DNA from: a virus
Strand: one strand, 5' to 3'
DNA length: 64,000 nt
IMG/VR virus record: IMGVR_UViG_3300022225_001767
Under the pieces are notes generated by a model. It saw only the letters and a program-made list of their open reading frames with translations. It ran no database searches and was not told the DNA's origin. This document shows, piece after piece, positions 36,409-58,374 of this stretch; within the stretch, counting starts at the first letter, position 1, and each line of letters opens with the position of its first letter. Made by a program: the position numbers and the translations under genes.

Positions 36409-36416
36409 ATCACCCA

Positions 36417-42222: not shown

Positions 42223-42447
42223 ATGAAACCGACTCTTATTGCACTGTGCATTTTGCTACTTTGCGCGATAACCGCGTCATCGGGCTGCACGCTTCAACGC
42301 CAGGTCGTGGCGAGCGCCTCTCTTGCCGATGAAGCAACAATGGATCACGTTACTGCGGCATTCCTTCGCGACACAGCCACGGTGACATTGACGACCCCTC
42401 AGGGGCGTGTCATACGCACATCACGTGCGAGGCAGTACTACTTTTAA
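42223..42447 (+). CDS. Small exported or lipoprotein-like protein
   Basis: GAGG RBS; hydrophobic N-terminus, SSGC. Confidence 0.65.
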   Translation: MKPTLIALCILLLCAITASSGCTLQRQVVASASLADEATMDHVTAAFLRDTATVTLTTPQGRVIRTSRARQYYF

Positions 42448-42448
42448 A

Positions 42449-42504
42449 CCTTGGTGATGTGCTGACACGCTCACCACCAGCCCGCCACTGGCGGGCTTTC
42501 TTTT
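42449..42504 (+). ncRNA. Hairpin plus terminator module, copy 2
   Basis: CCTTGGTGATGTGCTGACACGCTCACC..GCCCGCCACTGGCGGGC-TTTCTTTT. Confidence 0.55.
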
Positions 42505-42585
42505 GGCTGTTGAGTCGCGCCACCATTGACAACCTTCACAGATTCACGTTACAGTTTTATACAGACAATAACAAGGGATGCTCGC

Positions 42586-43137
42586 ATGAGTACAGCAACA
42601 CCTGAAACACCAACGCACTTTCAAATAGGCATGAACACATTCACCGCAGAAATCGTTGCTGCGGCAATCACTGTCCCCTTAAAAATGCTCAATTTTTCAC
42701 GATTCGATAATGCTCATGATGCGCTCGACGAAGTGAAAAAAATCACTACTGAGCGCCTCCCTGATCAAACCGCGTTAACCACATACTGTGGCAGTGAACT
42801 GGTGGCCAAACTCAATGAAGACACACCTGTCGCCATTTACGAGGTGTATCGTTCGCTCTCCCCTCTGGCACCCAAGGCTGACGCTTTGACGCTAAAAGCG
42901 ACGGAAGGGAAAGGTATCTTTTTGTGTTGCTTGCCGTCTTACGGGGCCAGAACACTGGTCAATTTATTTGTTGCCACTTACATTGACACGATCATCGATG
43001 AAGTGAAGCGCTTCGACACAGACGGGCATGTTAGTAACGTGCTTAAGAACGAGCCGCGTCGTTTTCCTTTGACACTTTCTGCCATCTTAATGGCAAGTCT
43101 TGGACGCACTGCCTACGATTTGTCACTCGCGGCTTAA
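42586..43137 (+). CDS. Hypothetical protein, paralog family with 49301 and 56623
   Basis: FSRFD..AL..T.ERL; YGARTLVNLFVATYIDT. Confidence 0.85.
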   Translation: MSTATPETPTHFQIGMNTFTAEIVAAAITVPLKMLNFSRFDNAHDALDEVKKITTERLPDQTALTTYCGSELVAKLNEDTPVAIYEVYRSLSPLAPKADALTLKATEGKGIFLCCLPSYGARTLVNLFVATYIDTIIDEVKRFDTDGHVSNVLKNEPRRFPLTLSAILMASLGRTAYDLSLAA

Positions 43138-43162
43138 AAGCATAGACAACAAGGATAATGTG

Positions 43163-44416
43163 ATGAGAATTAAATCGATAAATGAAGGAAAGGCGCTGCT
43201 TTTGCTTGAACGACACAAACACTGCGACCAGACCATGCACGCACTTTCCCGCGCATTATATGTTGGCATAAGAAACAGCCTCATCACACTGCTAGGCGCG
43301 CTGCTTCTATTGGTTGCGCTCTCAGATATAAAAGCGACAACATTAATGTTTCTCGCTTTCATAGGTGCCATAGCGCCTCTTTTCTACATCGCTGTGCACG
43401 CGTTCTTTGAGCGACGTGACGCTATCCGTCGAGGTGATCACAATGGCATCCTTAAACTTGCCCTGCGCCTGCCCGAACAAACCAGTAAAATTATCCCTTA
43501 TGGGCTGCCTTTTGGATTGAGCGTAATTTTTTACGAAGCGTACTCCACCCTCACTACGGGCACGTTCGCATCCTCCATGCTGCTAGGCACATGCCTTATT
43601 GTGACGGTCTATAGCGCGACGCTTTTCTTATTCAATAGCGCTAAACCTGCGCATGAGGCGAGAAATAAAAAGAGCGCGATGGATGTCGCACTCAGTGAAT
43701 TTGAAACATCAGATAGCGGCAAGCAGACCGCAGTGCTTAAGCGTTTTGGATTTTATCTTTCCAGCAGCCATAACAAATTTGGCAGCCTTCTCACCTCAAA
43801 AGAAGAGCAATCAGCTGTTATTGAGGCCGGTAAAGGTGTGATTAAAAGCCACAGTCAGGCCCGGGACGCTATTTACCTTCAAAACGGTTTAATGACTTGT
43901 CTTATCACAGTGGCCACGGTCATTTTTATGTACATTGCTCATCATGGATTAGTCACGCTAACTGACTCGCAAGCAGCTTCATACCCACTCTCACTAATGA
44001 TGGGGTTGTTCGGACTTTACGTCGGGCGTCACATTGGACTTAGCTTGTCTGTCAACCCAACGCTTGACTTCACTACGACCAATGAACAAGATGCTTATGA
44101 CCATACGGGACCACGAGCAAGTGACTTGATACGTTCACGGGCATTTTCGGTCACCTCTCCCCTTATTCCTGTTGTCATGATGGCACTTGCTCTAGCCCCT
44201 TCGACGCTATTTTCGTCGGCAACGGCCGAGGTTGCGTTCCAGCTTGCATTGATCACGTTCTTGCCATTGCTTTTAAATGCTGCGGTGACTCGAATGTCAC
44301 TGAGCATCATTGCCAGCACGGAACGTGATATTGATGCGCTAAGGCGTGATGTAGAGTATGCTAAGAAAAAATCCAACGTCTTGCAGTTCCATCGCAAGCA
44401 TAAAGCGAGCGCTTAA
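43163..44416 (+). CDS. Multi-pass membrane protein
   Basis: About 8 hydrophobic segments; AAGGA RBS. Confidence 0.8.
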   Translation: MRIKSINEGKALLLLERHKHCDQTMHALSRALYVGIRNSLITLLGALLLLVALSDIKATTLMFLAFIGAIAPLFYIAVHAFFERRDAIRRGDHNGILKLALRLPEQTSKIIPYGLPFGLSVIFYEAYSTLTTGTFASSMLLGTCLIVTVYSATLFLFNSAKPAHEARNKKSAMDVALSEFETSDSGKQTAVLKRFGFYLSSSHNKFGSLLTSKEEQSAVIEAGKGVIKSHSQARDAIYLQNGLMTCLITVATVIFMYIAHHGLVTLTDSQAASYPLSLMMGLFGLYVGRHIGLSLSVNPTLDFTTTNEQDAYDHTGPRASDLIRSRAFSVTSPLIPVVMMALALAPSTLFSSATAEVAFQLALITFLPLLLNAAVTRMSLSIIASTERDIDALRRDVEYAKKKSNVLQFHRKHKASA

Positions 44417-44472
44417 CATGGTAGGCAACCTGTGTTACAATGACAATGTCAACACAACACAGGTTATTCTCT

Positions 44473-44970
44473 ATGGATCCATGCTACATCGAACAAACCA
44501 AGATTGCTCACGGTCATGATCACAAAGGTCGTGACCTTACGATAGACAATTCGCAAACACCGGTTAAATGCGCGCGCTTCTTCTGTGTTTACCCGAAAGA
44601 GCAGAACGACCAAGGTAATATCGTCACTTACCAGTATTCAGAACAGACACCTCTTGGTATTCGCCATGTCACGCTGTCAGCAGACACGGTTAAGACGTGC
44701 TTTGTTAAGCATCGTCCTGTTGAGCACGGTGATACACTGAAGGCCAAGGTGGACACCAAAGGTTACATCAAGTGCGTCAACAGCGCCCCCCTAACCTTAG
44801 CGATAAAACAAGGTGAGGTTCTCACGTGCATCAACAGCAAGCTTAATACGTTCTGCAAGGTGGGTGAACCACATCGCATCTTCGGAATAAATCGCATGCT
44901 GATAGGAGACTATGCTCACACCATTGCCGATCCTGACGAGTTCCTTGTATTACCTTATATAGAGACGTAG
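44473..44970 (+). CDS. Hypothetical protein
   Basis: After variant repeat 44413. Confidence 0.75.
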   Translation: MDPCYIEQTKIAHGHDHKGRDLTIDNSQTPVKCARFFCVYPKEQNDQGNIVTYQYSEQTPLGIRHVTLSADTVKTCFVKHRPVEHGDTLKAKVDTKGYIKCVNSAPLTLAIKQGEVLTCINSKLNTFCKVGEPHRIFGINRMLIGDYAHTIADPDEFLVLPYIET

Positions 44971-45081
44971 GCCGCAGTTGCCACACCTCTTATCGGCTGC
45001 AAAAAAACACAAAAAACTGTTGACAACATACACAGGTTTTGGGATACTAATCCTGTCAGCACAACAACACAGGAAAACATC

Positions 45082-45480
45082 ATGAGCTTCATGCGTGAAC
45101 AAGCACTTAAAGCCCGTCGCCAAGTACTAAACCTCCACCTTAAAAAGTTGGATGCAGCCTTTCGCTCGCTTAAAAAAGACAAAGGTTTCGCGGCAGCACG
45201 TCTTACCAAAGATCACCACGACTCTGGCCAGGTGCGCTCTGAACTTGCTGAGGAAAAACTGGGCAAAGGGGCGCTAGATAGCGGTAACCTTTATGCGTTT
45301 TGTGGCATCATTAAGCGTGGGTGGACGACGCTACCAAATCAAACGTCTATCTTTTGGAATAGCACGGTTCCTAGCTCTCGCAAGATCATCGTCGACACGA
45401 TGCAAGACGCAGGGCTTGTTGTCACGAACCCTGACGCTCCTCACGAAGCGGTTGTGGTAAAGTTAAGTGATGCGGCATAG
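45082..45480 (+). CDS. Hypothetical protein
   Basis: After repeat 45020. Confidence 0.8.
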   Translation: MSFMREQALKARRQVLNLHLKKLDAAFRSLKKDKGFAAARLTKDHHDSGQVRSELAEEKLGKGALDSGNLYAFCGIIKRGWTTLPNQTSIFWNSTVPSSRKIIVDTMQDAGLVVTNPDAPHEAVVVKLSDAA

Positions 45481-45531
45481 CCGCATTCACTGCTCTTCAT
45501 TTTACTAACGCAACACTATAGGCAAAAAACA

Positions 45532-45834
45532 ATGAGTACTCCTACAGAAGCCATCGAAAATGCAACATTTGATTGCGCTGAACCCGTCATGAATGCGCTA
45601 CCTGATAGCGTTAATCACGCTAACCCCAATGGGGCACGCGCGAAGCAGGGATGGCGCGCCCTTCATGGCTACGCAAAACACATTTACGGAAGCAGTGGAG
45701 GCGAACCTGTCGAGCAGGGAGTACGCGACTTGCTATCTGATCTCCAGCACACATGCGAACATCTTAACATCGATTTCATGGAAGCGCTGGAGCGTGCTAG
45801 TTCCGTCTTCAATAGTGAGAAAGAACATCCATAA
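45532..45834 (+). CDS. Hypothetical protein (DLLSDLQH helical motif)
   Basis: ORF in the gene run. Confidence 0.75.
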   Translation: MSTPTEAIENATFDCAEPVMNALPDSVNHANPNGARAKQGWRALHGYAKHIYGSSGGEPVEQGVRDLLSDLQHTCEHLNIDFMEALERASSVFNSEKEHP

Positions 45835-45910
45835 ATGTCTCTTTTTTATTGACAACACTCTCAGCTTTTGAGATACTAACCCTGTCAACACAACGGTCTC
45901 GGAGAGCACT

Positions 45911-46429
45911 ATGAAAACATTGTTTGTCCCACTTGAGTTAATTACGCCAAATAGCGCGCAAATTGCTGGGCAAAGCATCAAAGCAACCGTATGCCAGAGC
46001 AAAATGTTTTCTTCCGATAGCATGCTTTCGCCTAACGTTAACTTAAAAGGCTACGATGCTCTCTCGCTACTTGGCGCTATCCTTGGTGATACTGGGGGCA
46101 ATACATCACCTGACGCTATCCCTGATGGTCGTGCTATTTTCGATGTAACGTTCTCGGCCTTTTACATCAACGACCTTAACGAACCCGAATACATTGATAT
46201 ATGTGTACAACGACAATGCCTCCCAAAGGACGCGCAGATCACTGAACGTGATACCACCATCATTGACGCGGTATTTTATGCCAAAATGGATGTGGTTGGC
46301 GATGTCAATTGCCCACTTGACGAGGATATTGTCAACGAGGCTCTCGCAGAATATAAGGAAGAACACCTGTCTGCGGCTCTTGGCGCGGTCGGCTGGCGTG
46401 TTAGCATTACACCCAAAGCCCTCAAGTAA
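45911..46429 (+). CDS. Hypothetical protein
   Basis: After repeat 45849. Confidence 0.8.
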   Translation: MKTLFVPLELITPNSAQIAGQSIKATVCQSKMFSSDSMLSPNVNLKGYDALSLLGAILGDTGGNTSPDAIPDGRAIFDVTFSAFYINDLNEPEYIDICVQRQCLPKDAQITERDTTIIDAVFYAKMDVVGDVNCPLDEDIVNEALAEYKEEHLSAALGAVGWRVSITPKALK

Positions 46430-46492
46430 CACGGTTTATATTTTTAGGTGAAGCCGTTTCGCTTCACCTCAACTCAACACCAAGGCGTCATT

Positions 46493-47140
46493 ATGAACTC
46501 TACAACCCTTTTAGCTTCACTTCGCATTGATGAAGAGCAAACGTTACTGACCCCTCAGCAACAGCTTGCACTCATTAAACGCACCACTGCACTGGCACAA
46601 AAAACGCCATCTCGTCTTACGCCAGATACTAATAAGGCATGGCAATTAGGCCGCTACTGGCTACCCCTTATCTCAAAACAAGCGACTCACGGCCATAAGC
46701 CTTCTCTCTCGGCACTACTTGAGATCGATAACATCATTGGGAGTCCAGACAGTGACACATGGTCTGATACTCTTCTAGGTTGGCTTTCTGACGCAGGGCT
46801 TGACGGTATCAGCAAGGCGGAGGTGGCTGCAATTGACGATATGAACGACACCGCAGAAAATGAAAAAATTGAGCAAGCTATCGCCACGGCCTCACCGTTA
46901 GCGCGCTATATCTGGGCAGACATTAATCCCAATGCAATAATGACCTATGCATATCAAGCATGTTCAAAGACGATGCTCCAGCGCTTATGGGTGCTCGACA
47001 GTACGGTCATTGATATCATGGTCGACAATGATGATTTCAGTTTAGCCAGCCTAACCGCTGCTGAACGTGCCTTAATGATGGCACTTTCCGATAGTCAACA
47101 CGACATTATTAAAGCGCTGGCCAGCCAGGCATCTAATTAG
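46493..47140 (+). CDS. Hypothetical protein, paralog of the 27461 C-terminal domain
   Basis: KPSL.A...I.N.I; SPL.RY.W.D.NP. Confidence 0.85.
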   Translation: MNSTTLLASLRIDEEQTLLTPQQQLALIKRTTALAQKTPSRLTPDTNKAWQLGRYWLPLISKQATHGHKPSLSALLEIDNIIGSPDSDTWSDTLLGWLSDAGLDGISKAEVAAIDDMNDTAENEKIEQAIATASPLARYIWADINPNAIMTYAYQACSKTMLQRLWVLDSTVIDIMVDNDDFSLASLTAAERALMMALSDSQHDIIKALASQASN

Positions 47141-47251
47141 ATTTTTATTACCCATAAAACCAAGGTTGTTTGCAACCTTGGTTGTTTTTTTATTGACAAT
47201 TAACACAGATTTTGAGATACTAACCCTGTCAGCACAACAGAGGTTACTCGC

Positions 47252-47590
47252 ATGAATACCACCTACGCTAAACGCGTTCTTACGCCCAAGTCAGACATTG
47301 TCGCCATCTACATTGGTTTTATCGGTGATACGCTTTATCTTTTTGAGTGCAACACCAAAAATCAAACGGTGCGTCAGTTTAAACTTAGCCTAAAAGACCG
47401 CACCATCCCTGATGAGCATCTTGCTAAAGCCATTGCCGATAAAGGATTGGCATTCAATCAAGTCAAGGTTTACTCTCACCCTGATTACATTGAGTATTTC
47501 AAGCGCGGGGCAGCAGGTACAAAGTCGATTAAACAAGACTTTTGGGTACGCACTACCGCAAGAAACCCCAACATGAAACGTGTCGCATAA
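47252..47590 (+). CDS. Hypothetical protein
   Basis: After repeat 47193. Confidence 0.8.
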   Translation: MNTTYAKRVLTPKSDIVAIYIGFIGDTLYLFECNTKNQTVRQFKLSLKDRTIPDEHLAKAIADKGLAFNQVKVYSHPDYIEYFKRGAAGTKSIKQDFWVRTTARNPNMKRVA

Positions 47591-47673
47591 CGGCACGTTC
47601 TTCATCTTTTTTGTTGACAATCAACACAGATTTTGAGATACTGATCCTGTCAGCACAACACAGGTAAAAAACG

Positions 47674-48288
47674 ATGAACACACCTCTTTCAGATACCGCA
47701 AAACAATACGCATTCATGGCACTAATGTTTCGCCAGCGTTTACTTCCTCGCTGGAATCGCATGTACCTTATCGAAAACGAAAATGTACTAGAGCATACTG
47801 CCGAAGTCACGATCACAGCACTGCTTTTAGGGTTAATCTCTAAGCATGAGTTTGGCAAAACCATCGACATAGGCAAGCTTCTATCTTACGCTATCCTGCA
47901 TGACGGTGAAGAAACGCTAACCACGGATTTGCCTTCCCCTATCAAACGCTCTTCACCTGAGTTCTACGATATGTGGAAAGCCCTTGAAGTTGAAAACGAA
48001 AAACTGCTTTTCAGCAAACTTCCTGATTACATGCGCAGCGAAATCGAAGCCATTTGCCATGACAAGTCTTATGAGACTGAATTGGTAAAAGCCGCAGATA
48101 TTTATGTCGCGCATAACAAAGCATCACGCGAGTTTGCGATGGGTAACGTACTAGAGTTCAAAGTTGCCGTTAAAAAATGCGAAGCGGCTTACCTTGAATA
48201 CGCAGAAAAATACCCTGAGTTAGCGCGCCTACATGAATACTTTGGCGGCTGCATGCACATGAGCCTTGATGAACTTATCGAGGCATAA
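47674..48288 (+). CDS. HD-domain 5'-deoxynucleotidase (YfbR-like)
   Basis: LPRW...ENVLEH...ILHD.EE..TDLPSPIK...VKAAD. Confidence 0.85.
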   Translation: MNTPLSDTAKQYAFMALMFRQRLLPRWNRMYLIENENVLEHTAEVTITALLLGLISKHEFGKTIDIGKLLSYAILHDGEETLTTDLPSPIKRSSPEFYDMWKALEVENEKLLFSKLPDYMRSEIEAICHDKSYETELVKAADIYVAHNKASREFAMGNVLEFKVAVKKCEAAYLEYAEKYPELARLHEYFGGCMHMSLDELIEA

Positions 48289-48365
48289 AAAACGGGGGCA
48301 ACGCCCGCCCCCACATTCACAAAAAATCACTCACAACAAGTCTCACTAAAAGTGAAAATAGACTT

Positions 48366-48890
48366 ATGAAAACACGCATCACACGCACACTAATGAGCGC
48401 AGCCTTAGCCATGAGCGCTTTATCTGTTAGTCATACCGCACTGGCAGAAGGCGAAACGATAAAAGGCATCGTGCCTATTGAACAAGCCAAAAACGCTAAT
48501 GTGAAAACATGCCTTAAAGCCGTTACAGATATTTCTAACTTTCTTATCGGTGATGGTGAGCATGGCGCGCATGGCACTTGGGCAACAGATTCACAAGATT
48601 CACATTATACTGCCGTCATTGAGCGCGCGTATAGTGACGGCTCAATGACCATGAATATTGTTGCCGCCCCCACCGCAGACGGCAAATGTGTCGCCCAGTA
48701 TACCAAACATATCATTTTTGAAGAAAACTGCATGAGTGCGCTAAAAACCTTTGATGGCATCGAAATAAAAGGCTCACTGGCGCAAAATGTGACATACATC
48801 AAGCACAATTTAGTTGATATGTATATGAATCCTATTGGCAAAAAAAATGAGTATTGCCATGTGGTCAGAAAAGAAGTGATGACATTCTAA
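48366..48890 (+). CDS. Exported Cys-containing protein
   Basis: Signal peptide ending ALA; 4 Cys. Confidence 0.8.
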   Translation: MKTRITRTLMSAALAMSALSVSHTALAEGETIKGIVPIEQAKNANVKTCLKAVTDISNFLIGDGEHGAHGTWATDSQDSHYTAVIERAYSDGSMTMNIVAAPTADGKCVAQYTKHIIFEENCMSALKTFDGIEIKGSLAQNVTYIKHNLVDMYMNPIGKKNEYCHVVRKEVMTF

Positions 48891-48955
48891 GTATTGAACT
48901 CACATTGCCGAAAGCGCCTTGTGGCGCTTTTGCATCACGTTTACAGGAATCTAAC

Positions 48956-49180
48956 ATGCCTTCAAACGCAAAAAATCTGTTAAGTGAGTGGAGTGCTCAC
49001 AAAGCAAGCCAACTTATACCTTGGCGGTATAACCTTCGTTCAGAAACCCTTTATGCCAACCTAGACAACAAAAAGGTTAAAATGAACAGAAAGATCCGCA
49101 GTATATTCCCCAGAGGGAAGCGGTTTGATCGCATCGCTAAAGATTGTGTTGCTGTACCTAAAGATCTTCAGGACGAGTGA
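48956..49180 (+). CDS. Small basic protein
   Basis: AGGA RBS. Confidence 0.65.
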   Translation: MPSNAKNLLSEWSAHKASQLIPWRYNLRSETLYANLDNKKVKMNRKIRSIFPRGKRFDRIAKDCVAVPKDLQDE

Positions 49181-49300
49181 TGAAAATAACATAGCGCAGT
49201 AGTTAGCCACATAAAAAGGCGCTTTCTCTACTTTCCTGTTGACAACACTCTCAGGTTTTGAGATGCTAACCCCTGTCAGCACAACAACAGGAACACCACG

Positions 49301-49855
49301 ATGAAAATCACATCCGCTTTTTTACCAAGCTACGCATTCTCAGTCGACATTTCACAGACGGTACTTTCCTGTATTGCCGATACCATAACCGCACCATTCG
49401 ATAACGAAGACTTTTCATCGTTTGCTTCGCTTGATGATGCGCTTAACCACATTGTCACACAAACACAGCAACGCCTTGCCACAGAGCAAGATAAGGTGCT
49501 AAGTCAGGCAGAGTCAACATTTGACTCGCTTGTCGATACAACAATCAATCACTTCTATGACGGCTTTTCGCCGATTGCGCTTTACGCCGACCGCATTACC
49601 CTAAACCACAGCTACAATGTACCTATGCACCACTTGATGCTCTGTAGTGCATGTACGATGGTAAATACATTTGTTGCGCTTTACGTTGATGTGCTTATCA
49701 AAGAGGCCGTTCGCTTTGACGCCGCCGCTTGCACATTGAAAGGCAGCGTTAAGGGGGATTCTACCTTATTCCTCAAAAACCTTAACGACATACTTCAGCA
49801 ATCGATGGGTTACGTCGAATATGACATAAGCCGCCTTTCTCAACTAGGCCTGTAA
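49301..49855 (+). CDS. Hypothetical protein, paralog family with 42586 and 56623
   Basis: After repeat 49239; TMVNTFVALYVD. Confidence 0.85.
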   Translation: MKITSAFLPSYAFSVDISQTVLSCIADTITAPFDNEDFSSFASLDDALNHIVTQTQQRLATEQDKVLSQAESTFDSLVDTTINHFYDGFSPIALYADRITLNHSYNVPMHHLMLCSACTMVNTFVALYVDVLIKEAVRFDAAACTLKGSVKGDSTLFLKNLNDILQQSMGYVEYDISRLSQLGL

Positions 49856-49960
49856 TGCACAACACGCGCCCTTTCCGCGAGGGCGCGCCGCCAAAAAAAT
49901 TGACAACGCACTCAGTTTTTGAGATACTGTTCTTGTCAGCACAACAACAAGGGTTACATC

Positions 49961-50638
49961 ATGGGTTGGGAATTTTGCAGCTACACAACGGACATTGATA
50001 AGGTCAACGAACCTCAGCTTTTTGCGGGCAATGAAGTTGGGTTGCCTACGCGACTTAATAATACACTTTATATTGACGAGAACGATGCAGCCAACGCGCT
50101 TTGCGATGAACTCGACAAGCTAGGCTGCATGTACGCAACATATATTGACTTCGAGTCGAGCAGCACTCCCCTCAAGAACGCACGCGTAACCCGCGCCCAT
50201 GAGACATTTAAAAAACGCTCTGAGCGCCAGTGCGAAGTGACATTGGCAGCAATACAAAAGGCAGAAAACCTTAAAACGCGAACATGCCCTAAGTGCAACA
50301 AGCGCGTTTCTATGCAGCGCTATCACCGTAACTTTAGCTACTTTAGGTCGAGTGTTAGTCACTCGCCTTACCATTCGTCATTCGGGGGTAGCTGCCCTCA
50401 TTGTGGCGACGACACACTGCCGCTAACGCAAGCCCAACGCCAATCTATCGAGAAGGCAAGAGTAAGAGCCGCAGACGCTTATGACGTATGGCAGAACGAG
50501 AAAGAAAAGGCCGTTCGCGCCATGCATAAGGCGGGCAAGCTTGGTACTAAAGCCGTGGTGGTGGGTATGCTGCATGAGATTGATGCGCGCCCCTACAACG
50601 ATGAACACTTTGATGAAGATGAGTACGATGATTATTGA
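49961..50638 (+). CDS. Zn-ribbon protein with acidic tail
   Basis: After repeat 49900; CPKC...CPHC. Confidence 0.8.
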   Translation: MGWEFCSYTTDIDKVNEPQLFAGNEVGLPTRLNNTLYIDENDAANALCDELDKLGCMYATYIDFESSSTPLKNARVTRAHETFKKRSERQCEVTLAAIQKAENLKTRTCPKCNKRVSMQRYHRNFSYFRSSVSHSPYHSSFGGSCPHCGDDTLPLTQAQRQSIEKARVRAADAYDVWQNEKEKAVRAMHKAGKLGTKAVVVGMLHEIDARPYNDEHFDEDEYDDY

Positions 50639-50740
50639 TCATCGTACGTTTTTCTTACAGACAACCTAAACAACCTATTGACAAATAACACAGATTTTGC
50701 GATACTTACCCTGTCAGCACAACAACACAGGCAACGCATT

Positions 50741-51442
50741 ATGACCACCTATCATCAACTTGCATTCCATGCGGCTTTTCGCCCAGCAAAATACCACTCG
50801 AACCACGCTGATTTGTTGCGTGAGCGTGCCAGCGATTTTGTTAATCCTGCTGCACGCATTGCATTAACTTACCCTGCATTAACACGCGTGCTTGATCACG
50901 CGGCTAACGCCTTTTCTTCGACCTCTGTTGTTGATGTATTTAGTGATGCGAAACGTTCAGCACAACGCATTGACGGCCTCTTTCTCATGTTGGTGTGTGC
51001 GGAGCGTCTTAATTTAGAAAACCTCAATACGCAACCCCGATCACCTGTCAGTGAAGCGGACATCAAGCGGGCCGAGGCGTTACTTGATGACTTAGGTAAA
51101 CTTAGAAAAGCCATCGATATTGCCAACAAAGGTATTACAGCAGACCACCTCACCTACGTAACAGGTACGCCTTGCCCTGCACAAGCGACACCTGATGACG
51201 TAAAGCTTATGTGGGTGGTATTTATGTTTCACGATATGTGTGTGAATTATAGCAACGGCATGTCCACGATTGGGCTACTCGACCCCAATGCGCCACCAGA
51301 ATGTAAAGCCCTGCGAGAACGTACCGCCAAGGTGATGGAAGACGCTTTTTTTCATCTTGCTACCCACTACATCGCATTTTCAGAGGTTGCAGCGATACGC
51401 GGTTCGCAGTCTACTCACACGGCACCACCATTGGTACAGTAA
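50741..51442 (+). CDS. Hypothetical protein
   Basis: After repeat 50678. Confidence 0.8.
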   Translation: MTTYHQLAFHAAFRPAKYHSNHADLLRERASDFVNPAARIALTYPALTRVLDHAANAFSSTSVVDVFSDAKRSAQRIDGLFLMLVCAERLNLENLNTQPRSPVSEADIKRAEALLDDLGKLRKAIDIANKGITADHLTYVTGTPCPAQATPDDVKLMWVVFMFHDMCVNYSNGMSTIGLLDPNAPPECKALRERTAKVMEDAFFHLATHYIAFSEVAAIRGSQSTHTAPPLVQ

Positions 51443-51559
51443 TCGCCAAGCGGCAGTCGTAAACATGATTATTGTGAGCGACTGTTGCCAAAACCATTGA
51501 CAACTATCACAGATTTTGCGATACTGATCCTGTCAGCACAACACATCAGGGTAACCATC

Positions 51560-52183
51560 ATGGCACTATTTCAAGCGCTTGCGCAACTTGTTAACGGTAA
51601 AACGTCACCACAAGAAAACATTGACTCCAATCAACCTGTTGATACAGGTGTGACTATCATTTCGGGCATAGATCCTCGCGCCACCAGCGAAGCGAAGCTT
51701 ATTGCACCTGCGCCACTACCGCACATTAGCCGTCGCTCACTGAAGCGTGTAAAGCACCGCGTTCCCGTGCCTGAAACATGCCCTTACTGCGGTCATGAGC
51801 ATGTCGAGTTAGTGGAGCATAAAACCGTTTATAAGCGTAGCTATGGAGAGTGGCCTTACCTTTACCTATGCCGAAATCAAGAATGCGGTGCCTACGTAGG
51901 TGTTCATCCTCACACTGATATACCGCTTGGCACGCTGGCTGATGCGGCCACTCGCGAGGCACGCAAAGCCAATAAAAGCTGGTTTATGCGCCTTATGAAG
52001 CGTCAGCAGTGCGGTCTTAATATTGGCTATCTATGGTTGTCTCAAGAAATGAACATTCGCGCTGAGCAATGCCACTGGTCAATGTTTGACGTTGAATTGT
52101 GCGAGCAGGCAGGCGCTATCTGCAAGGCAAAATTTGAAGATGGTACGATCCTCATGCCGAAGCACTTCTCTCGCTCAAAATAA
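51560..52183 (+). CDS. DUF3268-like zinc-finger protein
   Basis: CPYCG...YLC...CGAYVGVH..TDIPLGTLAD..R.AR. Confidence 0.8.
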   Translation: MALFQALAQLVNGKTSPQENIDSNQPVDTGVTIISGIDPRATSEAKLIAPAPLPHISRRSLKRVKHRVPVPETCPYCGHEHVELVEHKTVYKRSYGEWPYLYLCRNQECGAYVGVHPHTDIPLGTLADAATREARKANKSWFMRLMKRQQCGLNIGYLWLSQEMNIRAEQCHWSMFDVELCEQAGAICKAKFEDGTILMPKHFSRSK

Positions 52184-52190
52184 CCTCTTT

Positions 52191-52244
52191 TTGGTGCTGT
52201 GCTGACATACACACCCTGCCCGCCACGCGCGGGCTTTTCTCTTT
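52191..52244 (+). ncRNA. Hairpin plus terminator module, copy 3
   Basis: TTGGTGCTGTGCTGACATACACACC..GCCCGCCACGCGCGGGC-TTTT. Confidence 0.55.
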
Positions 52245-52331
52245 CTTAACATTGGTTATTTTCAATTTTAACATTGACTTAACCCTGATTATAAGAGACA
52301 ATAAACAGGTCAACACAACAAGGTATACTCC

Positions 52332-53108
52332 ATGGGAAAAACCACTAAGCCCCCTCTCTCAAATGTCACGCCTAAACCGACAGGCACCACCACGATATTC
52401 GACGAGTTATGCCATCTGCCGAAAGCCCAACAACAATGGGAAAACCGCACTTACATCAGTTTTGATGATGGCGACATCAGAGACAGCCTTGATATCCTGA
52501 CGCTTGAGAATGAGCACCTCTGCGGCCAGAGCGAGCCAGAATTTACTACAAGAGCAGGTGGACGCTATCAAGACACCTCGCTTACTGATTTTGTGGGCAT
52601 TGGCCTTAATCGTGACGATAGCGCCTTGTCGTTTGAAATAACCAATGCCGCAGACAGCGTTTTTGCGCCTGTCGAGTTAGCCGAGACATTTGTATGGTAC
52701 GTTGTGATTGATACGCGCACCAGCACCACAACCGTACACTATGCAGACTCGCATTTATCGATGGCATTTTCGCAAGCCACATGGGCGCAATGGCAGCAAT
52801 GGCTGATAACGTACCAACCGTTGCTGCATGTGCATGAGTACCGACAATTTATCTCTCCTTATTCACCTAACTACGAGGAAAAAGCGATGTTATTTTTAGT
52901 TGTTTATCACCCTGAAGGGGAAGAACCGCGTTCTGCGCTGGCTGAAGCGCCTAATGAAGATGTGGCATGGGATGCCGTTGCTGAGCGTCACCACCTTAAT
53001 GCTGGCACCTCGCCTGAAGACGAGGAGCTTTATCTCGACCACACCAAAGTGCTAGACAGCATGCTTAAAGAGGCGCAAGTACCTTATACATTAACATCGA
53101 CGCGTTAA
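52332..53108 (+). CDS. Hypothetical protein
   Basis: After repeat 52274. Confidence 0.75.
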   Translation: MGKTTKPPLSNVTPKPTGTTTIFDELCHLPKAQQQWENRTYISFDDGDIRDSLDILTLENEHLCGQSEPEFTTRAGGRYQDTSLTDFVGIGLNRDDSALSFEITNAADSVFAPVELAETFVWYVVIDTRTSTTTVHYADSHLSMAFSQATWAQWQQWLITYQPLLHVHEYRQFISPYSPNYEEKAMLFLVVYHPEGEEPRSALAEAPNEDVAWDAVAERHHLNAGTSPEDEELYLDHTKVLDSMLKEAQVPYTLTSTR

Positions 53109-53195
53109 TATCTGCATGAATTTTCTTGGCTGTGTTGACAACGCACTCAGACTTTGGGATACTAACACTGTCAACACAACCAAGGAGAAAGCCTC

Positions 53196-53351
53196 ATGGC
53201 ACAATCTAACGAAAATAAAGTTTGGATGGCGTATAACCACAACGACACGCCATTAATGAAATCACCCGCATCGCTTGAGGATGCCAGGGCTGAAGCTGAC
53301 GCGTACACCTACGCGACAGGCAATGCTTCTTATGTAGACAAGGCTAAATAA
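53196..53351 (+). CDS. Small protein (51 aa), absent from the ORF track
   Basis: After repeat 53135; AAGGAG RBS; MAQSNENKVWMAYNHND... Confidence 0.75.
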   Translation: MAQSNENKVWMAYNHNDTPLMKSPASLEDARAEADAYTYATGNASYVDKAK

Positions 53352-53551
53352 GAAAAGGCTCATAAGAGCCGTTTCTTCACGCATTACAAAATCGCAAAAG
53401 CGAATATAGATATGTGGTGATACGTTGCAAAGAAGACGATTGCCAACTCGCCTTTTTTTGCATATAAAACAAACACCAATCACTTTTTGTATTGACAACA
53501 CTCTCAGCTTTTGAGATACTAACCCTGTCAGCACAACTTAGGAGCATCACC

Positions 53552-53893
53552 ATGCCTGCAATCGATACGCAACAGCAACGCGACAACGCCATCAAAGGTA
53601 AAACTCTGGCCTTTATCGGTGACGCCAATTGGGACCTCTATGCGCAACCTGATGGACGTCTTTGGGCCATTCCAAAACCAGACTGCCTTGGCTGTCATAT
53701 GAGTCCTTTTGGAGACAGACATCACGTCAAGAGACTGATGGACAAGGGTTACTTCACTTCCACGCCGACGGATGCAGGACTTGCACTAATGGAGGGGCTT
53801 TACACAAGGCTGATTACCGATTCGAAAGGGAAGCGTTTTGGGATTTTAGGCTTCGACATACCCGACGGCCTTAGGACAGCTTTCGCAGCCTAA
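53552..53893 (+). CDS. Hypothetical protein
   Basis: After repeat 53492. Confidence 0.8.
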   Translation: MPAIDTQQQRDNAIKGKTLAFIGDANWDLYAQPDGRLWAIPKPDCLGCHMSPFGDRHHVKRLMDKGYFTSTPTDAGLALMEGLYTRLITDSKGKRFGILGFDIPDGLRTAFAA

Positions 53894-54002
53894 ATATGAG
53901 GTGCGCGGCTGGTTAATTATGGGTCAGCCGCATTTTCTATTGACAACACTCTCAGAGTTTGAGATACTTATCTTGTCAGCACAACATTAAAGGTATATCA
54001 CA

Positions 54003-54368
54003 ATGGAACAGGTTCTTTTTCTTGCATACGCTATCACAGGCATGGACTACGAGTACGAGAACGAAGCGTTGCTTCTCCCTACGCCAGATCTCGATGCAGC
54101 GAAAGCGGCATGCTGGGATTTTCTTTTTGCCAATGATATCATGGGCAACGACGATGAGTACGCGTTGGCGCGTGTAGACAAAGTTGTAGTGGGTCAACGT
54201 GACAGCACCGAAGTGGTGTGGCATTCGCGTGAGGAGCAAAAGCAAGTGGACCTTGAGATTGCAGCCGCAGAACAAGCGCTTGCACACAAAGAGCGCAACC
54301 TCGACAATGAGGCGTGGCTGTATTGGGACATGGAGCAGGCGCTTATGGGCCAGCGGGTGATGCATTAA
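54003..54368 (+). CDS. Acidic hypothetical protein
   Basis: After repeat 53940. Confidence 0.8.
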   Translation: MEQVLFLAYAITGMDYEYENEALLLPTPDLDAAKAACWDFLFANDIMGNDDEYALARVDKVVVGQRDSTEVVWHSREEQKQVDLEIAAAEQALAHKERNLDNEAWLYWDMEQALMGQRVMH

Positions 54369-54413
54369 TCGCCCCCTAATGTAATACTTTTTCAACCAGA
54401 GGGCGCACATCAC

Positions 54414-54908
54414 ATGGATATAACCAACGAAGATCCACAAACAGACATCACCCTGAATACTATTGGGCAAGCCTTATTATGGATGTGGCGTGGCGTCGGT
54501 TTTTTCGCGCTTCTTGCGGTCATTTCGTTGATGGCACATTCTTATGCCACATTGCCCGACTTTGAGCCTCACACTTTTAAGCTAACGACGTCGTTTTTAA
54601 TTATGGCTATGTGTATCGGCTTGATAATCGCCAAGCTTGCTCATACCGTTGCATTCAGGTATCAAAATGTCACCCGAAACCAGCCTCACAGTACGTCGCA
54701 TGATGCGCAGGTGGCATTCGACCTGGTCAGCACAGCATTGATTGCACTGTTTACTAATTATGGTGCCATTATCGCGATAGACATGCTGACATCTGCCGAA
54801 AACACCATGTGGGATAGTGTTTTTATAACCGCTGCGTTGGGATTTAACACACTGTTTGTCATCCTCACCTCCGATTTACGGAAGGTAATAAAGCCAGATG
54901 TCGATTAA
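54414..54908 (+). CDS. Four-TM membrane protein
   Basis: GAGGG RBS; hydrophobic helices. Confidence 0.75.
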   Translation: MDITNEDPQTDITLNTIGQALLWMWRGVGFFALLAVISLMAHSYATLPDFEPHTFKLTTSFLIMAMCIGLIIAKLAHTVAFRYQNVTRNQPHSTSHDAQVAFDLVSTALIALFTNYGAIIAIDMLTSAENTMWDSVFITAALGFNTLFVILTSDLRKVIKPDVD

Positions 54909-54989
54909 ACATAATGCAAAAAAACATTGACAACGCTCTCAGCTTTTGGGATACTGTTCCTGTCAGCACAACAACACAGGAACAGTACC

Positions 54990-55502
54990 ATGGCACTATT
55001 TGCTATCAAAGCCTTACCCCTTAACCTTTCTCCGATGAATCTACGCCCTGAATTGGGTGAAATCGAAATCGACACCGACACACTTGAGAAAGCCAGAGAT
55101 GTTGCTCAGTCGCGCGTCCCATCAGATAAACCCTTCATGATTTGCCCGTGGCGCGAAACCACCAAGTGCTTCACAGTGGGCGACCGCGAATTCGTCTTCC
55201 CGTCAACGCTTTACCGCTACAACGGCAAAGATTTCGATGTTCATCAAGGCAAATGCCTAAGTGATTCACCTGCGTCAGGCCAATTCTTGAATAAGAGTGA
55301 TGCAAAGCGTGATTATGATAAGCATGCGAAACTTGCTCAGGATAAGTTTGACAAAGCGCTTGCGCACCTGAAGGCCATGGAGGCGCTAGGTGTTAGCATT
55401 GATTACCACATGGCTGGCGATACGCATGGCATCTATGAAGATTACATGTATCTTGAAGTACAAGAAGGCCCTTATACCTTCGAATACCGTTACGGCAGCT
55501 AA
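54990..55502 (+). CDS. Hypothetical protein
   Basis: After repeat 54927. Confidence 0.8.
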   Translation: MALFAIKALPLNLSPMNLRPELGEIEIDTDTLEKARDVAQSRVPSDKPFMICPWRETTKCFTVGDREFVFPSTLYRYNGKDFDVHQGKCLSDSPASGQFLNKSDAKRDYDKHAKLAQDKFDKALAHLKAMEALGVSIDYHMAGDTHGIYEDYMYLEVQEGPYTFEYRYGS

Positions 55503-55512
55503 CACCAACATT

Positions 55513-55538
55513 AAAGCCCGCATTTTACGGGCTTTTTT
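55513..55538 (+). terminator. Intrinsic terminator
   Basis: AAAGCCCG-CATTTTA-CGGGC-T6. Confidence 0.75.
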
Positions 55539-55609
55539 ACGCAAAACCCATTGACAAAAAACACAGATTTTGAGATACTGTTCCTGTCAGCACAACACGG
55601 GTTACCACC

Positions 55610-55918
55610 ATGAACACACTATCGAATAAAACAATGTTTGATCACGATGCCGCAGACAAGACGTTCCCCATCTCAAAGCGTCGAAAATCACTGCTTCGTT
55701 ATATTCGTGAGCATGGTTGGGTAAAAGCCACCTGCATGGCAACAAAACTGGCCACTGGCTACCCTAAGCGCGCCAGAAAAGCAAACAAAACTTACGGCCA
55801 CGCGCTAAAGTCACTGTGGCTTCGTGGAGAGCTTGAGGGGATCAAAATAAACGGTGTTTGGCATTACACACAAGCCGCCCCGTATCACGACCGCTCGCCT
55901 ATTTCACGCGGTAAATAA
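55610..55918 (+). CDS. Basic protein, possible winged helix
   Basis: After repeat 55551; LLRYIREHG...LKSLWLRGELEGIKINGVWHY. Confidence 0.7.
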   Translation: MNTLSNKTMFDHDAADKTFPISKRRKSLLRYIREHGWVKATCMATKLATGYPKRARKANKTYGHALKSLWLRGELEGIKINGVWHYTQAAPYHDRSPISRGK

Positions 55919-55953
55919 ACCACAACAACACTTTTCGTCACTAGGGAAACAGC

Positions 55954-56547
55954 ATGAAAAACATCAAAATCGGTCTTTCTTCTATCTACAATTCACATCA
56001 TTTTGAAGCGGAGCTTATCAACGGTGATAGTGAATTTTCTTTCCCGCGAGAGTCAGGGGCTGACAATGCATGCCGCCGCGCCGCACAAAACCTTCGTGAT
56101 ATGGCAGAAAAATTCGACATGCTCGCACTGGCGGTGAACCCAAATAACGCAACGACCATTAACAGCGTCAATAAACCTATGAGTAAGCGCGCACAAGATT
56201 TCGTGCGAGATAACCCCGCAGGTTCTGATTTTGTCTTTCGTGCAGATCGCACAGGCTCGCACTATGAAGACGGTACGGTTTATTACAATTATCAAGGTTT
56301 AGTTGATTATACATTCGACAATATCTTTGATGCGGCTCGCTACTTGATAGACGGCGCGACAGATGTGCCACACTACAGAGCAGATGCTGTGGGCAACCGC
56401 CTTGATGATGGATCTATTTCATTCTGGTCAGCAAGCTATGATGATGATGAACTTGACCTTGATGATGATGGTGGCACCGTCTACACCAAGCCCGAGCGCG
56501 TTGATGAAAATGGCGAGGTCGTGGACGAGGACGACAGTGTGTCGTAA
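55954..56547 (+). CDS. Hypothetical protein with acidic C-terminus
   Basis: AGGGA RBS. Confidence 0.8.
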   Translation: MKNIKIGLSSIYNSHHFEAELINGDSEFSFPRESGADNACRRAAQNLRDMAEKFDMLALAVNPNNATTINSVNKPMSKRAQDFVRDNPAGSDFVFRADRTGSHYEDGTVYYNYQGLVDYTFDNIFDAARYLIDGATDVPHYRADAVGNRLDDGSISFWSASYDDDELDLDDDGGTVYTKPERVDENGEVVDEDDSVS

Positions 56548-56622
56548 TTACGGCACACTATTGACAACCCTCTCATATCTGTGAGAGGATTATTTTCGTC
56601 AACACAACAACGAGAATGCATT

Positions 56623-57186
56623 ATGAACAGCACTACAACACAGCACAACAGCCAGCCTAATGTTTTTGAAATTGGTTATTGCAGCAATGTATCTGAAGCT
56701 ATTTCAGTTGCCATCTGCGTACCTTTAAGTACATATGATTTCTCAACGTTTGATACGGTGTCTCAAGCGCTTGAACAGATCGCTATAATGACGAAAAAGC
56801 GACTTGATAACGCCCCAGCATTAGTTGAAAGCTACGGCAATGAACTTACCTCTCGCATCAACAGTATGAAAATGAACGTTACTGATGAGGTGTACGACGC
56901 ACTTTCGCCCCTTGCTCGCAGTGCAGACAACCTGACCATTGAGGTTGTCAATAACCGTGAAGGCCACGTGCCGCTTAATAAGTTAAGCATCTATGGCGCA
57001 CGTACGCTCATTAACCTTTTTGTTTACACCTACATCGATACGTTGATGGAGATGGTCAAGAAGTATGATGTTGAAAGCGCGCTTGATGATATGCTACAAA
57101 ACGACCCCGCTAAATTCTGGATGACACTTGATGATTTGCTGACGAGTTGCGCAGGCTACCCTGATTTTGACATGACGCGTATCTAA
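56623..57186 (+). CDS. Hypothetical protein, paralog family with 42586 and 49301
   Basis: After repeat 56561; YGARTLINLFVYTYIDT. Confidence 0.85.
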   Translation: MNSTTTQHNSQPNVFEIGYCSNVSEAISVAICVPLSTYDFSTFDTVSQALEQIAIMTKKRLDNAPALVESYGNELTSRINSMKMNVTDEVYDALSPLARSADNLTIEVVNNREGHVPLNKLSIYGARTLINLFVYTYIDTLMEMVKKYDVESALDDMLQNDPAKFWMTLDDLLTSCAGYPDFDMTRI

Positions 57187-57201
57187 CACGCTTTAGTTTC
57201 A

Positions 57202-57254
57202 CCTTGGTGATGTGCTGACACACTCACCCAAGCCCGCCATGCGCGGGCTTTTTT
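57202..57254 (+). ncRNA. Hairpin plus terminator module, copy 4
   Basis: CCTTGGTGATGTGCTGACACACTCACC..GCCCGCCATGCGCGGGC-T6. Confidence 0.55.
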
Positions 57255-57267
57255 GACTCTTTTTTGG

Positions 57268-57487
57268 TTGACTTTATCGCTTTAGTTGGTATAATTAACT
57301 TCAATATTTAGGTGATTCGGCCTAGATGTTACCAAGCGTATAACGGCGCGGATTGCTTCACCCTCCAGGCGACTGGCACGGCATCACGTTAACACACAAT
57401 CTACAGTATGTTTCTTTGCAGCATTATTCACAATGGCCGCACAGGACAACGGGTGAACTCTTATGTATCGGTCAATTGAGGATAATT
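57268..57487 (+). promoter_or_regulatory. Box-less promoter with ~185 nt structured leader
   Basis: TTGACT-N16-TATAAT with TG extension; AATATTTAGG/CCTAGATGTT stem. Confidence 0.6.
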
Positions 57488-58267
57488 ATGTCAACGCTAC
57501 AACAAAAACTTCGCACGCTTATCAGCCAACACAGCGATGGCCCTCGCGCCTTTGCTTCTTTGCTTTCCGCATCGCATAATGCCTTCTTTGGAACACCACT
57601 TAACGAGTCTAAATCCAAGGCATTTGGTGCAGTGATAGCAGGCGTTAAAAACGCCCACGTGTTCTCATCCCTCACCAACACCGAGTCAGCAGTAACACGC
57701 ACCACATCTTCGCTTATTAGTATCTGCTCGCGCACCCACGACCACCTCTATGGCGAAGGATATTTCGACTTTTACTACCCTGTTTTCACTTGCGATGAGA
57801 CGTCGAACTCTGTGGGGATATTTACAACGGCCCATATGGATGATGATGAGTTGTGCGTCAGAGTGACCCAATCCATTAAAGCGTTTGATGATCAAATAGG
57901 TGAGTTTGTTGAATGCGTGCTAGCACCTTGCGGCGCAACCTGTAGCATGAAGCTTATTAGTACAAATGGCGGCAACTCCCGTCTAATTTTCCGTATTGAT
58001 TACCTTAACGAAGATGCGCAGCAACGCTTGCAGGAAGCCACGCAGCCCGACATCGTCAAAACCGCCGAGTTATGTGCGCGCGCTAAACAAGAGCCTAAGC
58101 GATGTAATGTGAGTTATGCATCCACATCCGCTCTCAGGGCGATGCAGACGCTGGAACTTTCTCGCATTATTGAGGCTATTGGTGCCATACCGCATCCTGA
58201 CTTTACCACACATCAAAGCCACCTCGCTTTGTTTGATGGTTACGTTCCTTACAAGGCATTGGCGTAA
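57488..58267 (+). CDS. Hypothetical protein of the structured-leader class
   Basis: GAGGA RBS; KAFGAVIAGVKNAH. Confidence 0.75.
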   Translation: MSTLQQKLRTLISQHSDGPRAFASLLSASHNAFFGTPLNESKSKAFGAVIAGVKNAHVFSSLTNTESAVTRTTSSLISICSRTHDHLYGEGYFDFYYPVFTCDETSNSVGIFTTAHMDDDELCVRVTQSIKAFDDQIGEFVECVLAPCGATCSMKLISTNGGNSRLIFRIDYLNEDAQQRLQEATQPDIVKTAELCARAKQEPKRCNVSYASTSALRAMQTLELSRIIEAIGAIPHPDFTTHQSHLALFDGYVPYKALA

Positions 58268-58374
58268 TCGCGTACACTGCGGGTTGAGGCGTTCCTCAGC
58301 CTGCAAAAAAACATTGACTTAGCACACAGGCTTGTTACACTGTTCTTAGTCAGCACAACAAGCAGGTAACCCGC

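Follow-up and report, generated by a model that had tools for sequence, protein, structure and literature searches.

About a hundred small genes of a very large uncultured marine mobile element share the same predicted 11-base message start, which comes in two forms, with A or G at base 5, and the two forms occupy separate domains of the element. This two-form array is real; the mechanism behind it is unproven. Comparison of related sequences indicates that the tag form is inherited together with its promoter–gene cassette, and a hairpin found in the stretch dominated by the G form is exactly complementary to the G spelling, which suggests two RNA-addressed sets of genes.

The 64,000-nt stretch of DNA analysed here (the window) is a section of a long one-directional array of single-gene cassettes. 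Contigs of the element, which is about 300–450 kb in size, reach 447 kb, and the same layout was recovered in independent metagenome assemblies from several projects. Each cassette contains, in order, an A-tract, a sigma70-type promoter, the predicted transcription start, the 5′ tag, a ribosome site and a small ORF. The promoter, predicted from its sequence to be of the sigma70 type (a −35 TTGACA and a −10 hexamer separated by 17 ± 1 nt, the TG extension being optional), reads TTGACA, 14 nt, TGnGATACT in about 40 of the 54 plus-strand promoter-plus-leader copies in the window. The predicted start is the G located 7 nt past the −10, and the predicted tag is almost invariant, GUCA(A/G)CACAAC (in DNA, GTCA(A/G)CACAAC), its two forms differing at +5. 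No relatives were found among INPHARED phages (megablast and tblastn), PLSDB plasmids (megablast) or IMG/VR and GTDB genomes (pattern scans), and a literature search with the tag sequences returned unrelated primers only. Comparison of the proteins of the G-form run with Pfam and PHROGs gave a YfbR-like HD domain and a DUF3268, the remainder being orphans, and the G set had no functional theme.

GTCAGC was found in 14 of the 54 copies. The first-pass annotation had described a regional switch from GTCAAC to GTCAGC, and the switch holds: 12 of the 16 copies at 45055–58349 carry G, compared with 2 of the 35 before 45 kb (leaders 3755 and 31343), whereas the three copies from there to the window end are all A. 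The two early G copies had been listed before, as 3720 and 31308 counted from the −35 element, but among a total of 38. A scan for the best contiguous block of copies picks exactly those 16 (hypergeometric p 4e-7), and none of 5,000 label shuffles (0/5000) matched the observed clustering. The cassettes concerned are as follows.

45020..58360, plus strand: G-form run, 16 promoter-plus-leader cassettes, 12 of them tagged GTCAGCACAAC
45055, 47228, 47649, 49275, 49935, 50713, 51532, 53527, 53975, 54962, 55586 and 58349, plus strand: G leaders in the run
45849..45894, plus strand: A-form promoter and leader within the G run (leader 45884)
52274..52319, plus strand: A-form promoter and leader within the G run (leader 52309), with an atypical −10 region, after the module at 52188
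53121..53483, plus strand: A-form cassette within the G run (leader 53170, 51-aa ORF); an indel, with 64 nt in its place in relative L008
56550..57197, plus strand: A-form cassette within the G run (leader 56598, gene to 57186); missing from relative L027, where the module directly follows the preceding gene
1..45000, plus strand: A-form domain in the window, 33 A-form and 2 G-form cassettes
3708..4042, plus strand: isolated cassette of the G form within the A domain (leader 3755); missing from relatives L007 and L042
31308..31353, plus strand: second isolated G-form promoter and leader in the A domain (leader 31343)
12051..12098, minus strand: A-form promoter and leader driving ORF 11691-12038(−)

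The tag complement at 12051 was considered as an antisense RNA and rejected, as it is the genuine minus-strand leader of ORF 11691-12038(−).

The G region begins where it had been placed, at 45020, but 58360 is not its end: the G run resumes past the window end, and contigs continuing beyond the window show a G domain that starts at 45 kb, spans about 61 kb and ends about 42 kb past the last base of the window. On the composite map, 45–110 kb holds 50 G and 13 A copies and 0–45 kb holds 2 G and 31 A (Fisher 1e-12). A sister lineage dominated by G was rejected as an explanation, since the 290-kb contig starts right at the window end and is thus the downstream part of the same genome. Within the window, G and A promoters are otherwise indistinguishable, so that G is not a promoter family of its own there. 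Nor does recent duplication of G promoters explain the G run of the window: G–G promoter distances are no smaller than A–G ones (14.1 versus 15.5, not significant), and the leader-associated genes of the window include one paralogue pair only.

Base +5 is A or G in all 167 promoter-anchored copies (96:71), the sole other base at this position being that of a single GTCATC copy on the composite map. It also shows the highest spatial autocorrelation among 40 polymorphic promoter and leader positions (z 4.7, next 2.45), and overall promoter similarity falls with distance (Mantel rho 0.15). Among leaders of genes whose products are at least 70% identical in amino acids, 143 pairs are concordant in form and 3 discordant; of these three, two come from one toggle between orthologues, and paralogues make up the other. 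DNA-level comparisons of orthologous leaders showed no form switch, and one leader toggles between G and A in 97.7%-identical relatives, with no module changing alongside. The relatives found all represent this one element and do not differ in layout; their module seeds are invariant and that one leader toggles alone.

Cassette indels are located at the promoter repeats, and the G-form outliers are paralogues of G-domain genes: the protein of leader 3755 is 74% identical to that of a G-led gene situated about 1.3 kb after the window stops, and the gene of leader 31343 is 63% identical to a paralogue located in the distal G domain. Recombination at the promoter repeats adds, removes and copies cassettes, which explains the exceptions in both domains. 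The earlier proposal of two sub-regulons or two fused ancestral blocks fits on the side of the blocks, since the two domains have paralogous genes in common (10 A/G pairs, 0 A/A and 5 G/G); the matched loop change that went with it does not (see below). These observations also feed an account, possible though on balance unlikely, in which ancestry is everything: which purine stands at +5 would be almost neutral and would label two arrays, ancestral or duplicated, now joined in one genome. Movement of the tag form with its cassette, outliers that are indels or transposed paralogues, the split of the paralogue pairs, the decay of promoter similarity with distance and the toggle between close relatives are all as this account predicts. 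However, since +5 is always A or G in promoter-anchored copies and is held in orthologues, it is constrained rather than free, and it clusters far more than the other polymorphic positions.

The 'CUGA hairpins' reported at 40–57 kb proved to be a conserved 3′UTR module of a hairpin plus a terminator. It has 12 copies, all at 40–103 kb of the composite map, that is, in the G domain and the 5 kb before it, as counted from the window start onwards, with about 100 kb more of the A domain lying further upstream. The 5′ arm and loop of its hairpin are the exact complement of the G tag from +1 to +9, or of 10 nt when the base before +1 is included. This 10-nt complement, TGTGCTGACA, occurs four times on the plus strand, at 40128, 42458, 52198 and 57211, compared with about 0.15 expected per strand (0.31 over both strands, from shuffles), and every copy lies in a CUGA-tetraloop hairpin just upstream of an intrinsic terminator. 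The four modules of the window are the following.

40118..40172, plus strand: anti-G module copy 1, in the 3′UTR of an A-led gene; hairpin GGUGAUGUG-CUGA-CACACUCACC with a GC-rich intrinsic terminator after it
42448..42502, plus strand: anti-G module copy 2, immediately downstream of the stop codon at 42447; its 3′ arm has A changed to G, which retains a U-G pair
52188..52242, plus strand: anti-G module copy 3, with a variant stem and the loop CUGACA, in the 3′UTR of the G-led gene 51560-52183
57201..57256, plus strand: anti-G module copy 4, in the 3′UTR of the A-led gene of leader 56598; it shares 98% identity with copy 1

Chance, with a repeat-rich sequence producing both the clustering and the complementarity, has in its favour only the post-hoc choice of boundaries in the first-pass annotation. 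It is already refuted by the permutation, by the expectation for the 10-mer and by the layout repeated in independent assemblies, and is given practically no weight here.

The modules begin 1–70 nt past stop codons and before the mRNA's own terminator, a 3′UTR-derived placement, and each is followed by an intrinsic terminator with a GCCCGC(C) stem, a 3–5-nt loop and a T run. The terminator stem has one compensatory change in relatives, and the first hairpin has a U-A to U-G change. In the main form of the module, most of the G-tag complement is inside a stable 9-bp stem and CUGA alone is exposed. Over the window, no Rfam family reaches its gathering score; weak matches to Trp_leader and Yfr1 (E 0.02–0.06, far below gathering) reflect the terminator hairpin only. 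The module pattern has a single match in GTDB, in a Niveibacterium MAG, which equals the number expected by chance.

The modules do not follow the G leaders locally, as the idea that the antisense loops switch together with the leaders would have it. Two of the four window modules (40.1 and 42.5 kb) precede the G run, three of the four end A-led transcripts, and the nearest leader is G in five cases and A in five upstream, with the same count downstream, no different from other terminators. Cis pairing, in which the 5′ tag would bind the 3′ module of the same transcript, was likewise rejected as a form-matched rule, because the upstream leader of the non-redundant modules is G in five and A in five. 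This absence of a local tie suits the ancestry-only account, which sees in the module an ordinary 3′ stabiliser and terminator derived from an inverted G-type leader, its complementarity having no regulatory use; the reverse complement of the module indeed resembles a G leader through the CAGG/AAGG ribosome-site-like tract. Yet a fossil would not be expected to hold GUGCUGACA invariant in all 12 copies, in two unrelated stem and terminator contexts, while the flanks diverge.

A different element matches the A form. The UUGA hairpins had been located correctly at 19.9 kb, and their complementarity to the tag, like that of the CUGA hairpins, is real.

19844..19992, plus strand: predicted A-form anti-tag RNA element, in the 3′UTR following ORF 19431-19799

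It consists of two GC-stemmed hairpins, with UGUUGUUUUGUUGAC and CUGUUGUGUUGAC in their loops, together with a third, smaller hairpin and a terminator. The anti-tag sites, at 19859 and 19910, are within the two GC-stemmed hairpins and have UUGAC loops, the second of which is perfectly complementary to GTCAACACAACAG over 13 nt. Between ORF 19431-19799 and the element there is no repeat-type promoter, and neither around 19.9 kb nor around 40.1 kb did the Rfam family of C4 antisense RNA give a match at E ≤ 1. The two architectures, a two-hairpin 3′UTR RNA and a short hairpin–terminator module, are unrelated, and no A-form version of the module occurs in the roughly 200 kb examined. The compensatory change of target and anti-target that had been proposed is thus not borne out, as elements that are not homologous cannot have arisen by compensatory substitution within one antisense gene.

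The predicted pairing of the two elements differs in its selectivity. In cofolding, the module gives a ddG of −13.7 with G tags, −8.5 with A tags and about −2.6 with random controls, a predicted preference for G over A of about 5 kcal/mol, and an in-silico A-to-G swap brings the A tags to −12.9. Co-adaptation past +5 is marginal (0.8 kcal/mol, p 0.047). The 19.9-kb RNA pairs about equally with both forms (−12.0 with A tags and −12.9 with G tags). These predictions agree with the earlier suggestion that UUGA can pair with both forms and CUGA with one only. Seed complementarity exceeds chance, with perfect complements of 13 nt for the A form and 10 nt for the G form.

Recognition by a protein or by RNA polymerase would account for the tag in another way. 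Here +1 to +11 would be a DNA or nascent-RNA site for a factor encoded by the element, such as a timing regulator or a modified polymerase, the A and G forms would be two temporal classes, for example immediate and delayed, and the module would be an inverted site at gene ends. The tag overlaps the predicted start with operator-like invariance, early and middle gene blocks of phages are typically contiguous, and the classes differ array-wide at several promoter positions and in ribosome-site flavour (GGAG in 32% of A and 6% of G leaders; CAGG in 21% and 56%). But no candidate factor was found and nearly all the genes are orphans, the 19.9-kb complement sits in two hairpin loops on unrelated GC stems, a feature of RNA display, and the module stem's change from U-A to U-G is neutral in plus-strand RNA only. 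We consider this explanation quite improbable.

The reading that we tentatively prefer combines cassette-inherited A/G domains, as block ancestry, with RNAs from the 3′ elements that pair with the tags, one through wobble and one with the G form only. RNA fragments bearing the 3′ elements would pair with the first 9–13 nt of cassette mRNAs, and in part with the ribosome site, and could alter their translation or stability. The UUGAC RNA would reach both tag forms by G-U wobble and the CUGAC module the G form only, so that the array would have two channels, one broadcast and one for G alone. As for the regional clustering, it would mainly be block ancestry, and would stay sharp because +5 is constrained. 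A bolder version, which we regard as doubtful, is a self-addressed two-channel control in which 3′-end hairpins silence or stabilise every message with the matching 5′ address, for more than 100 genes and with no protein regulator; such control would be hierarchical, UUGAC acting on both addresses and CUGAC on the G address only. Should the pairing prove functional, the element would have the first large gene array of the bacterial world addressed by an identical 5′-terminal mRNA tag, with two tag forms and form-specific antisense hairpins within the transcripts' own 3′ ends. Such pairing would provide a compact programmable switch for whole gene blocks, and a natural experiment in how antisense specificity (A-U versus G-U versus A-C) partitions regulons. 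Even if the pairing has no function, the array offers a clean case of promoter-repeat-mediated cassette turnover in a 300–450-kb uncultured element, in which one constrained base keeps a record of block ancestry.

Large lytic phages such as T4 have arrays of near-identical early promoters. As in these, dozens of small orphan genes of the element point the same way, and each is preceded by a strong sigma70 promoter that has an A-rich tract upstream and an extended −10. Unlike the element, arrays of the T4 type are not known to have an invariant transcribed 5′ tag, two tag forms or complementary hairpins. Between phages P1 and P7, the specificity of c4 RNA differs through matched base changes in loops and targets, the kind of pair that had first been proposed here. 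The c4 antisense RNA of the P1 and P7 immI region (Citron & Schuster 1990, cited in PMC8198154) comes from a mobile element and pairs, by its exposed loops, with short target sequences repeated upstream of the genes it silences, as is predicted for the element. However, c4 has two sites in one operon, whereas here about a hundred separate mRNAs carry the target at their 5′ termini, and both specificities are found in one genome, on non-homologous RNAs that have no Rfam match. Enterobacteria have 3′UTR-derived, Hfq-dependent small RNAs, for example CpxQ, SroC and DapZ. Like these, the module has its seed just upstream of its own intrinsic terminator, is predicted to be made as the tail of a coding transcript, and has targets with A/C-rich (AAC)n tracts adjoining the ribosome site; unlike these, it recurs on 12 or more transcripts, is directed at the tag that the element itself has in common and has most of its seed within a stem. 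GcvB uses a G/U-rich RNA region to act on many mRNAs through a common C/A-rich leader motif, and a similar use of one RNA region for many mRNAs is predicted here. In contrast to the dispersed host genes and degenerate motifs of GcvB, the shared motif of the element is an exact 11-nt 5′ terminus, in two forms that occupy separate domains of the genome.

Repeat finding and direct reading revealed ~55 copies of one promoter–leader unit in the window, all but one on the + strand, ordered as A-rich tract, TTGACA(AC), 14 nt, TGnGATACT, 6 nt, GTCA(A/G)CACAAC, ribosome site and ATG. The unit reads as a sigma70-type promoter with an extended −10. Because the G of GTCA lies 7 nt past the −10, it is the predicted transcription start, which would place the tag GTCA(A/G)CACAAC at the mRNA 5′ end and its variable base (A form or G form) at +5. 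Both GTCAAC (94 versus 35 expected) and GTCAGC (60 versus 37 expected) are enriched, and the genes 3′ of the leaders are small and nearly all orphans. In all promoter copies the start region repeats the −35 box in inverted orientation (for example, (G)TTGACA, ~29 nt, TGTCAAC at window 32006–32053), so in read-through RNA the tag could base-pair with the −35 sequence transcribed from its own promoter.

The G form occurs in 14 of the 54 plus-strand copies tabulated: 2 of 35 upstream of 45 kb (leaders 3755 and 31343) versus 12 of 16 across 45055–58349, the three copies 3′ of 58349 within the window all being A. Exactly those 16 copies scored best among all contiguous stretches scanned (p 4e-7), a result matched by 0/5000 label shuffles; a runs test on leader alleles gave 14/5000. 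The numbers given for this enrichment in the first-pass annotation are correct. Relatives were not found in phage, plasmid, IMG/VR or GTDB collections; a metagenome scan returned 43 marine contigs, many 78–99% identical to parts of the window, and a look-up of the protein at 61925–62509 matched contigs of up to 447 kb. One of these long contigs, L047, matches window 51.9–62.6 kb at 99.95% identity, and the 290-kb contig Ga0208895_1000001 starts exactly at the window end. Tags, and the 3′UTR hairpin–terminator modules complementary to the G tag, were counted on a composite of the window and the first 46 kb of that contig.

Tag alleles and modules on the composite map
0–45 kb: G 2, A 31, modules 2
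45–110 kb: G 50, A 13, modules 10

Allele counts differ between the two intervals (Fisher p 1e-12), so the 45-kb switch is the edge of a G domain of ~61 kb, in which the A copies at 59–62 kb (n=3) form an island. The switch had been placed at 45020–58360; its start stands and its extent is larger. The final tag of the composite lies near 106 kb: no tagged promoters were detected from ~41.5 to 46 kb of the 290-kb contig, nor in the rest of it by a strict pattern scan. All 12 modules fall between 40 and 103 kb, with none in 0–40 kb. Promoters change in flavour along the array; the −35 of the distal G domain (L051:10481–15880; ~36–41.5 kb of the 290-kb contig) is TTTACA, not TTGACA, and TGCGATACT stands there in place of TGAGATACT. 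The element was found on L046 (LARK21-1 scaffold_1, 447 kb), L047 (364 kb) and L050 (263 kb). Its very long contigs come from several independent projects, one a hydrothermal-vent metagenome, and 213 blocks of the assembly collection list the 61925–62509 protein, so that the element is both widespread and abundant.

Orthologous promoters always carried the same allele as the window, even with flanks just 75–85% identical. Protein-homology pairs of at least 70% identity were concordant in 143 cases and discordant in 3, two of which are a single event (G in contigs L023 and L028, A in L031; 97.7% identity) and the third a pair of paralogues. Pairs below 50% identity, which are paralogues across the A and G domains, were concordant in 15 cases and discordant in 11. 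Cassettes of promoter, leader and small gene are gained and lost at the promoter repeats.

Window cassettes missing from related marine contigs
3708–4042 (leader 3755, G): missing from L007 and L042
21081–21483 (A): missing from L036
53121–53483 (A): missing from L008
56550–57197 (A): missing from L027

Both G outliers of the A domain lead genes paralogous to G-led genes of the G domain (74% and 63% amino acid identity), and indels account for two of the four A copies interrupting the G run. Paralogue pairs number 10 between the domains, 5 G/G and 0 A/A, a pattern that fits two related arrays joined within one genome, as in the 'two fused ancestral blocks' proposed earlier, and that by family count is only suggestive. 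The immediate cause of the switch is cassette and block ancestry. Other segments also vary: 60 bp replace window 43142–44391 (1250 bp, most of the 438-aa ORF 43100–44416) in L009, and L014 and L038 carry additional ~730–790 bp segments at promoter repeats 31301/31308 and 32986/32999. The window ends in a TnpB/IS605-type element (62610–64000; TnpB ORF 62771–64000+) that is polymorphic, with window 16643–18037 listed alongside; L047–L050 lack it at that site, and L045 has a 96%-identical copy elsewhere, between the positions corresponding to 56549 and 57481.

Across 167 promoter-anchored copies, +5 is A or G without exception (96:71), the only other frequent tag polymorphism being A/G at +10; GTCATC occurs once on the composite. 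In spatial autocorrelation along the composite, +5 ranks first of 40 polymorphic positions (z 4.7 versus 2.45 for the next), and promoter similarity decays with distance generally, more weakly (Mantel rho 0.15, 0/999). When the whole array is compared, several promoter positions distinguish the two classes, and ribosome-site GGAG occurs in 32% of A and 6% of G leaders, CAGG in 21% and 56%; inside the window, A and G promoters are inseparable apart from +5. A protein or polymerase class marker is an improbable reading of the allele.

A tag-complement search (both strands, 12-nt tag, ≤2 mismatches) gave these minus-strand matches other than −35 boxes.

12051: promoter-linked leader driving ORF 11691–12038(−)
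19859, 19910, 19947: sites in the 3′UTR element with UUGAC loops, 19844..19992 (+)
40126, 42456, 52196, 57209: G-type sites, in the modules at 40118, 42448, 52188 and 57201

The first was ruled out as an antisense site, being a true minus-strand leader. The 19.9-kb sites lie 3′ of the stop codon of ORF 19431–19799, with no repeat-type promoter between; the predicted fold has two GC-stemmed hairpins, with UGUUGUUUUGUUGAC and CUGUUGUGUUGAC in their loops, then a small hairpin and a terminator. Just 5′ of these hairpins in the same 3′UTR, a small hairpin at 19811–19831, CUGAUG-(CGUCAAC)-CAUCAG, carries the sense motif GUCAAC in its loop and could pair with them intramolecularly. The four G-type sites belong to a 53-nt repeat (family D12) that begins 1–70 nt past stop codons and folds as GGUGAUGUG-CUGA-CACACUCACC followed by a GCCCGC terminator (z −3.2 to −4.4); the 10-mer TGTGCTGACA has 4 + strand copies versus ~0.15 expected. 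Neither element has an Rfam match. Search and folding recovered the UUGA hairpins at 19.9 kb and CUGA hairpins at 40–57 kb noted in the first-pass annotation.

Within every module copy GUGCUGACA is invariant while the flanks diverge, and a second module form (L013:5518–5597) keeps the invariant sequence in a ~10-nt loop with a different stem and terminator, which points to selection acting on that sequence as such. Cofolding counted the cost of hairpin opening.

Cofold ddG of the module (kcal/mol)
with 44 G tags: −13.7
with 41 A tags: −8.5
with A tags switched in silico to G: −12.9
with random segments: about −2.6

Discrimination by the module comes almost wholly from the single base, and the 19.9-kb RNA gave −12.0 with A and −12.9 with G tags; the argument that UUGA pairs with both alleles through G–U and CUGA with one therefore holds in prediction. 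Four A-form leaders (window 8191, 9045, 14273, 27111) carry CACAGC, a +10 change that, like the +5 change, would keep a U–G wobble with UUGAC-type RNA. The proposed compensatory change of target and anti-target is a misfit: the A- and G-complementary elements share no homology, and no A-form module exists in the ~200 kb examined.

Other features also sit poorly with that compensatory change. Three of the four window modules end A-led transcripts, and the leaders nearest to modules split 5 G : 5 A both upstream and downstream, no different from those at other terminators. The complement lies largely within the 9-bp stem of the main form, and one leader toggles allele with the modules unchanged. 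The regional switch is genuine and belongs to a larger organisation in two domains, of which the G domain has its own allele-matched hairpin module. An ancestry-only account, in which the module is non-regulatory, is rather unlikely, though less so than a class marker; a two-channel antisense scheme is the best single reading, and we hold it tentatively.
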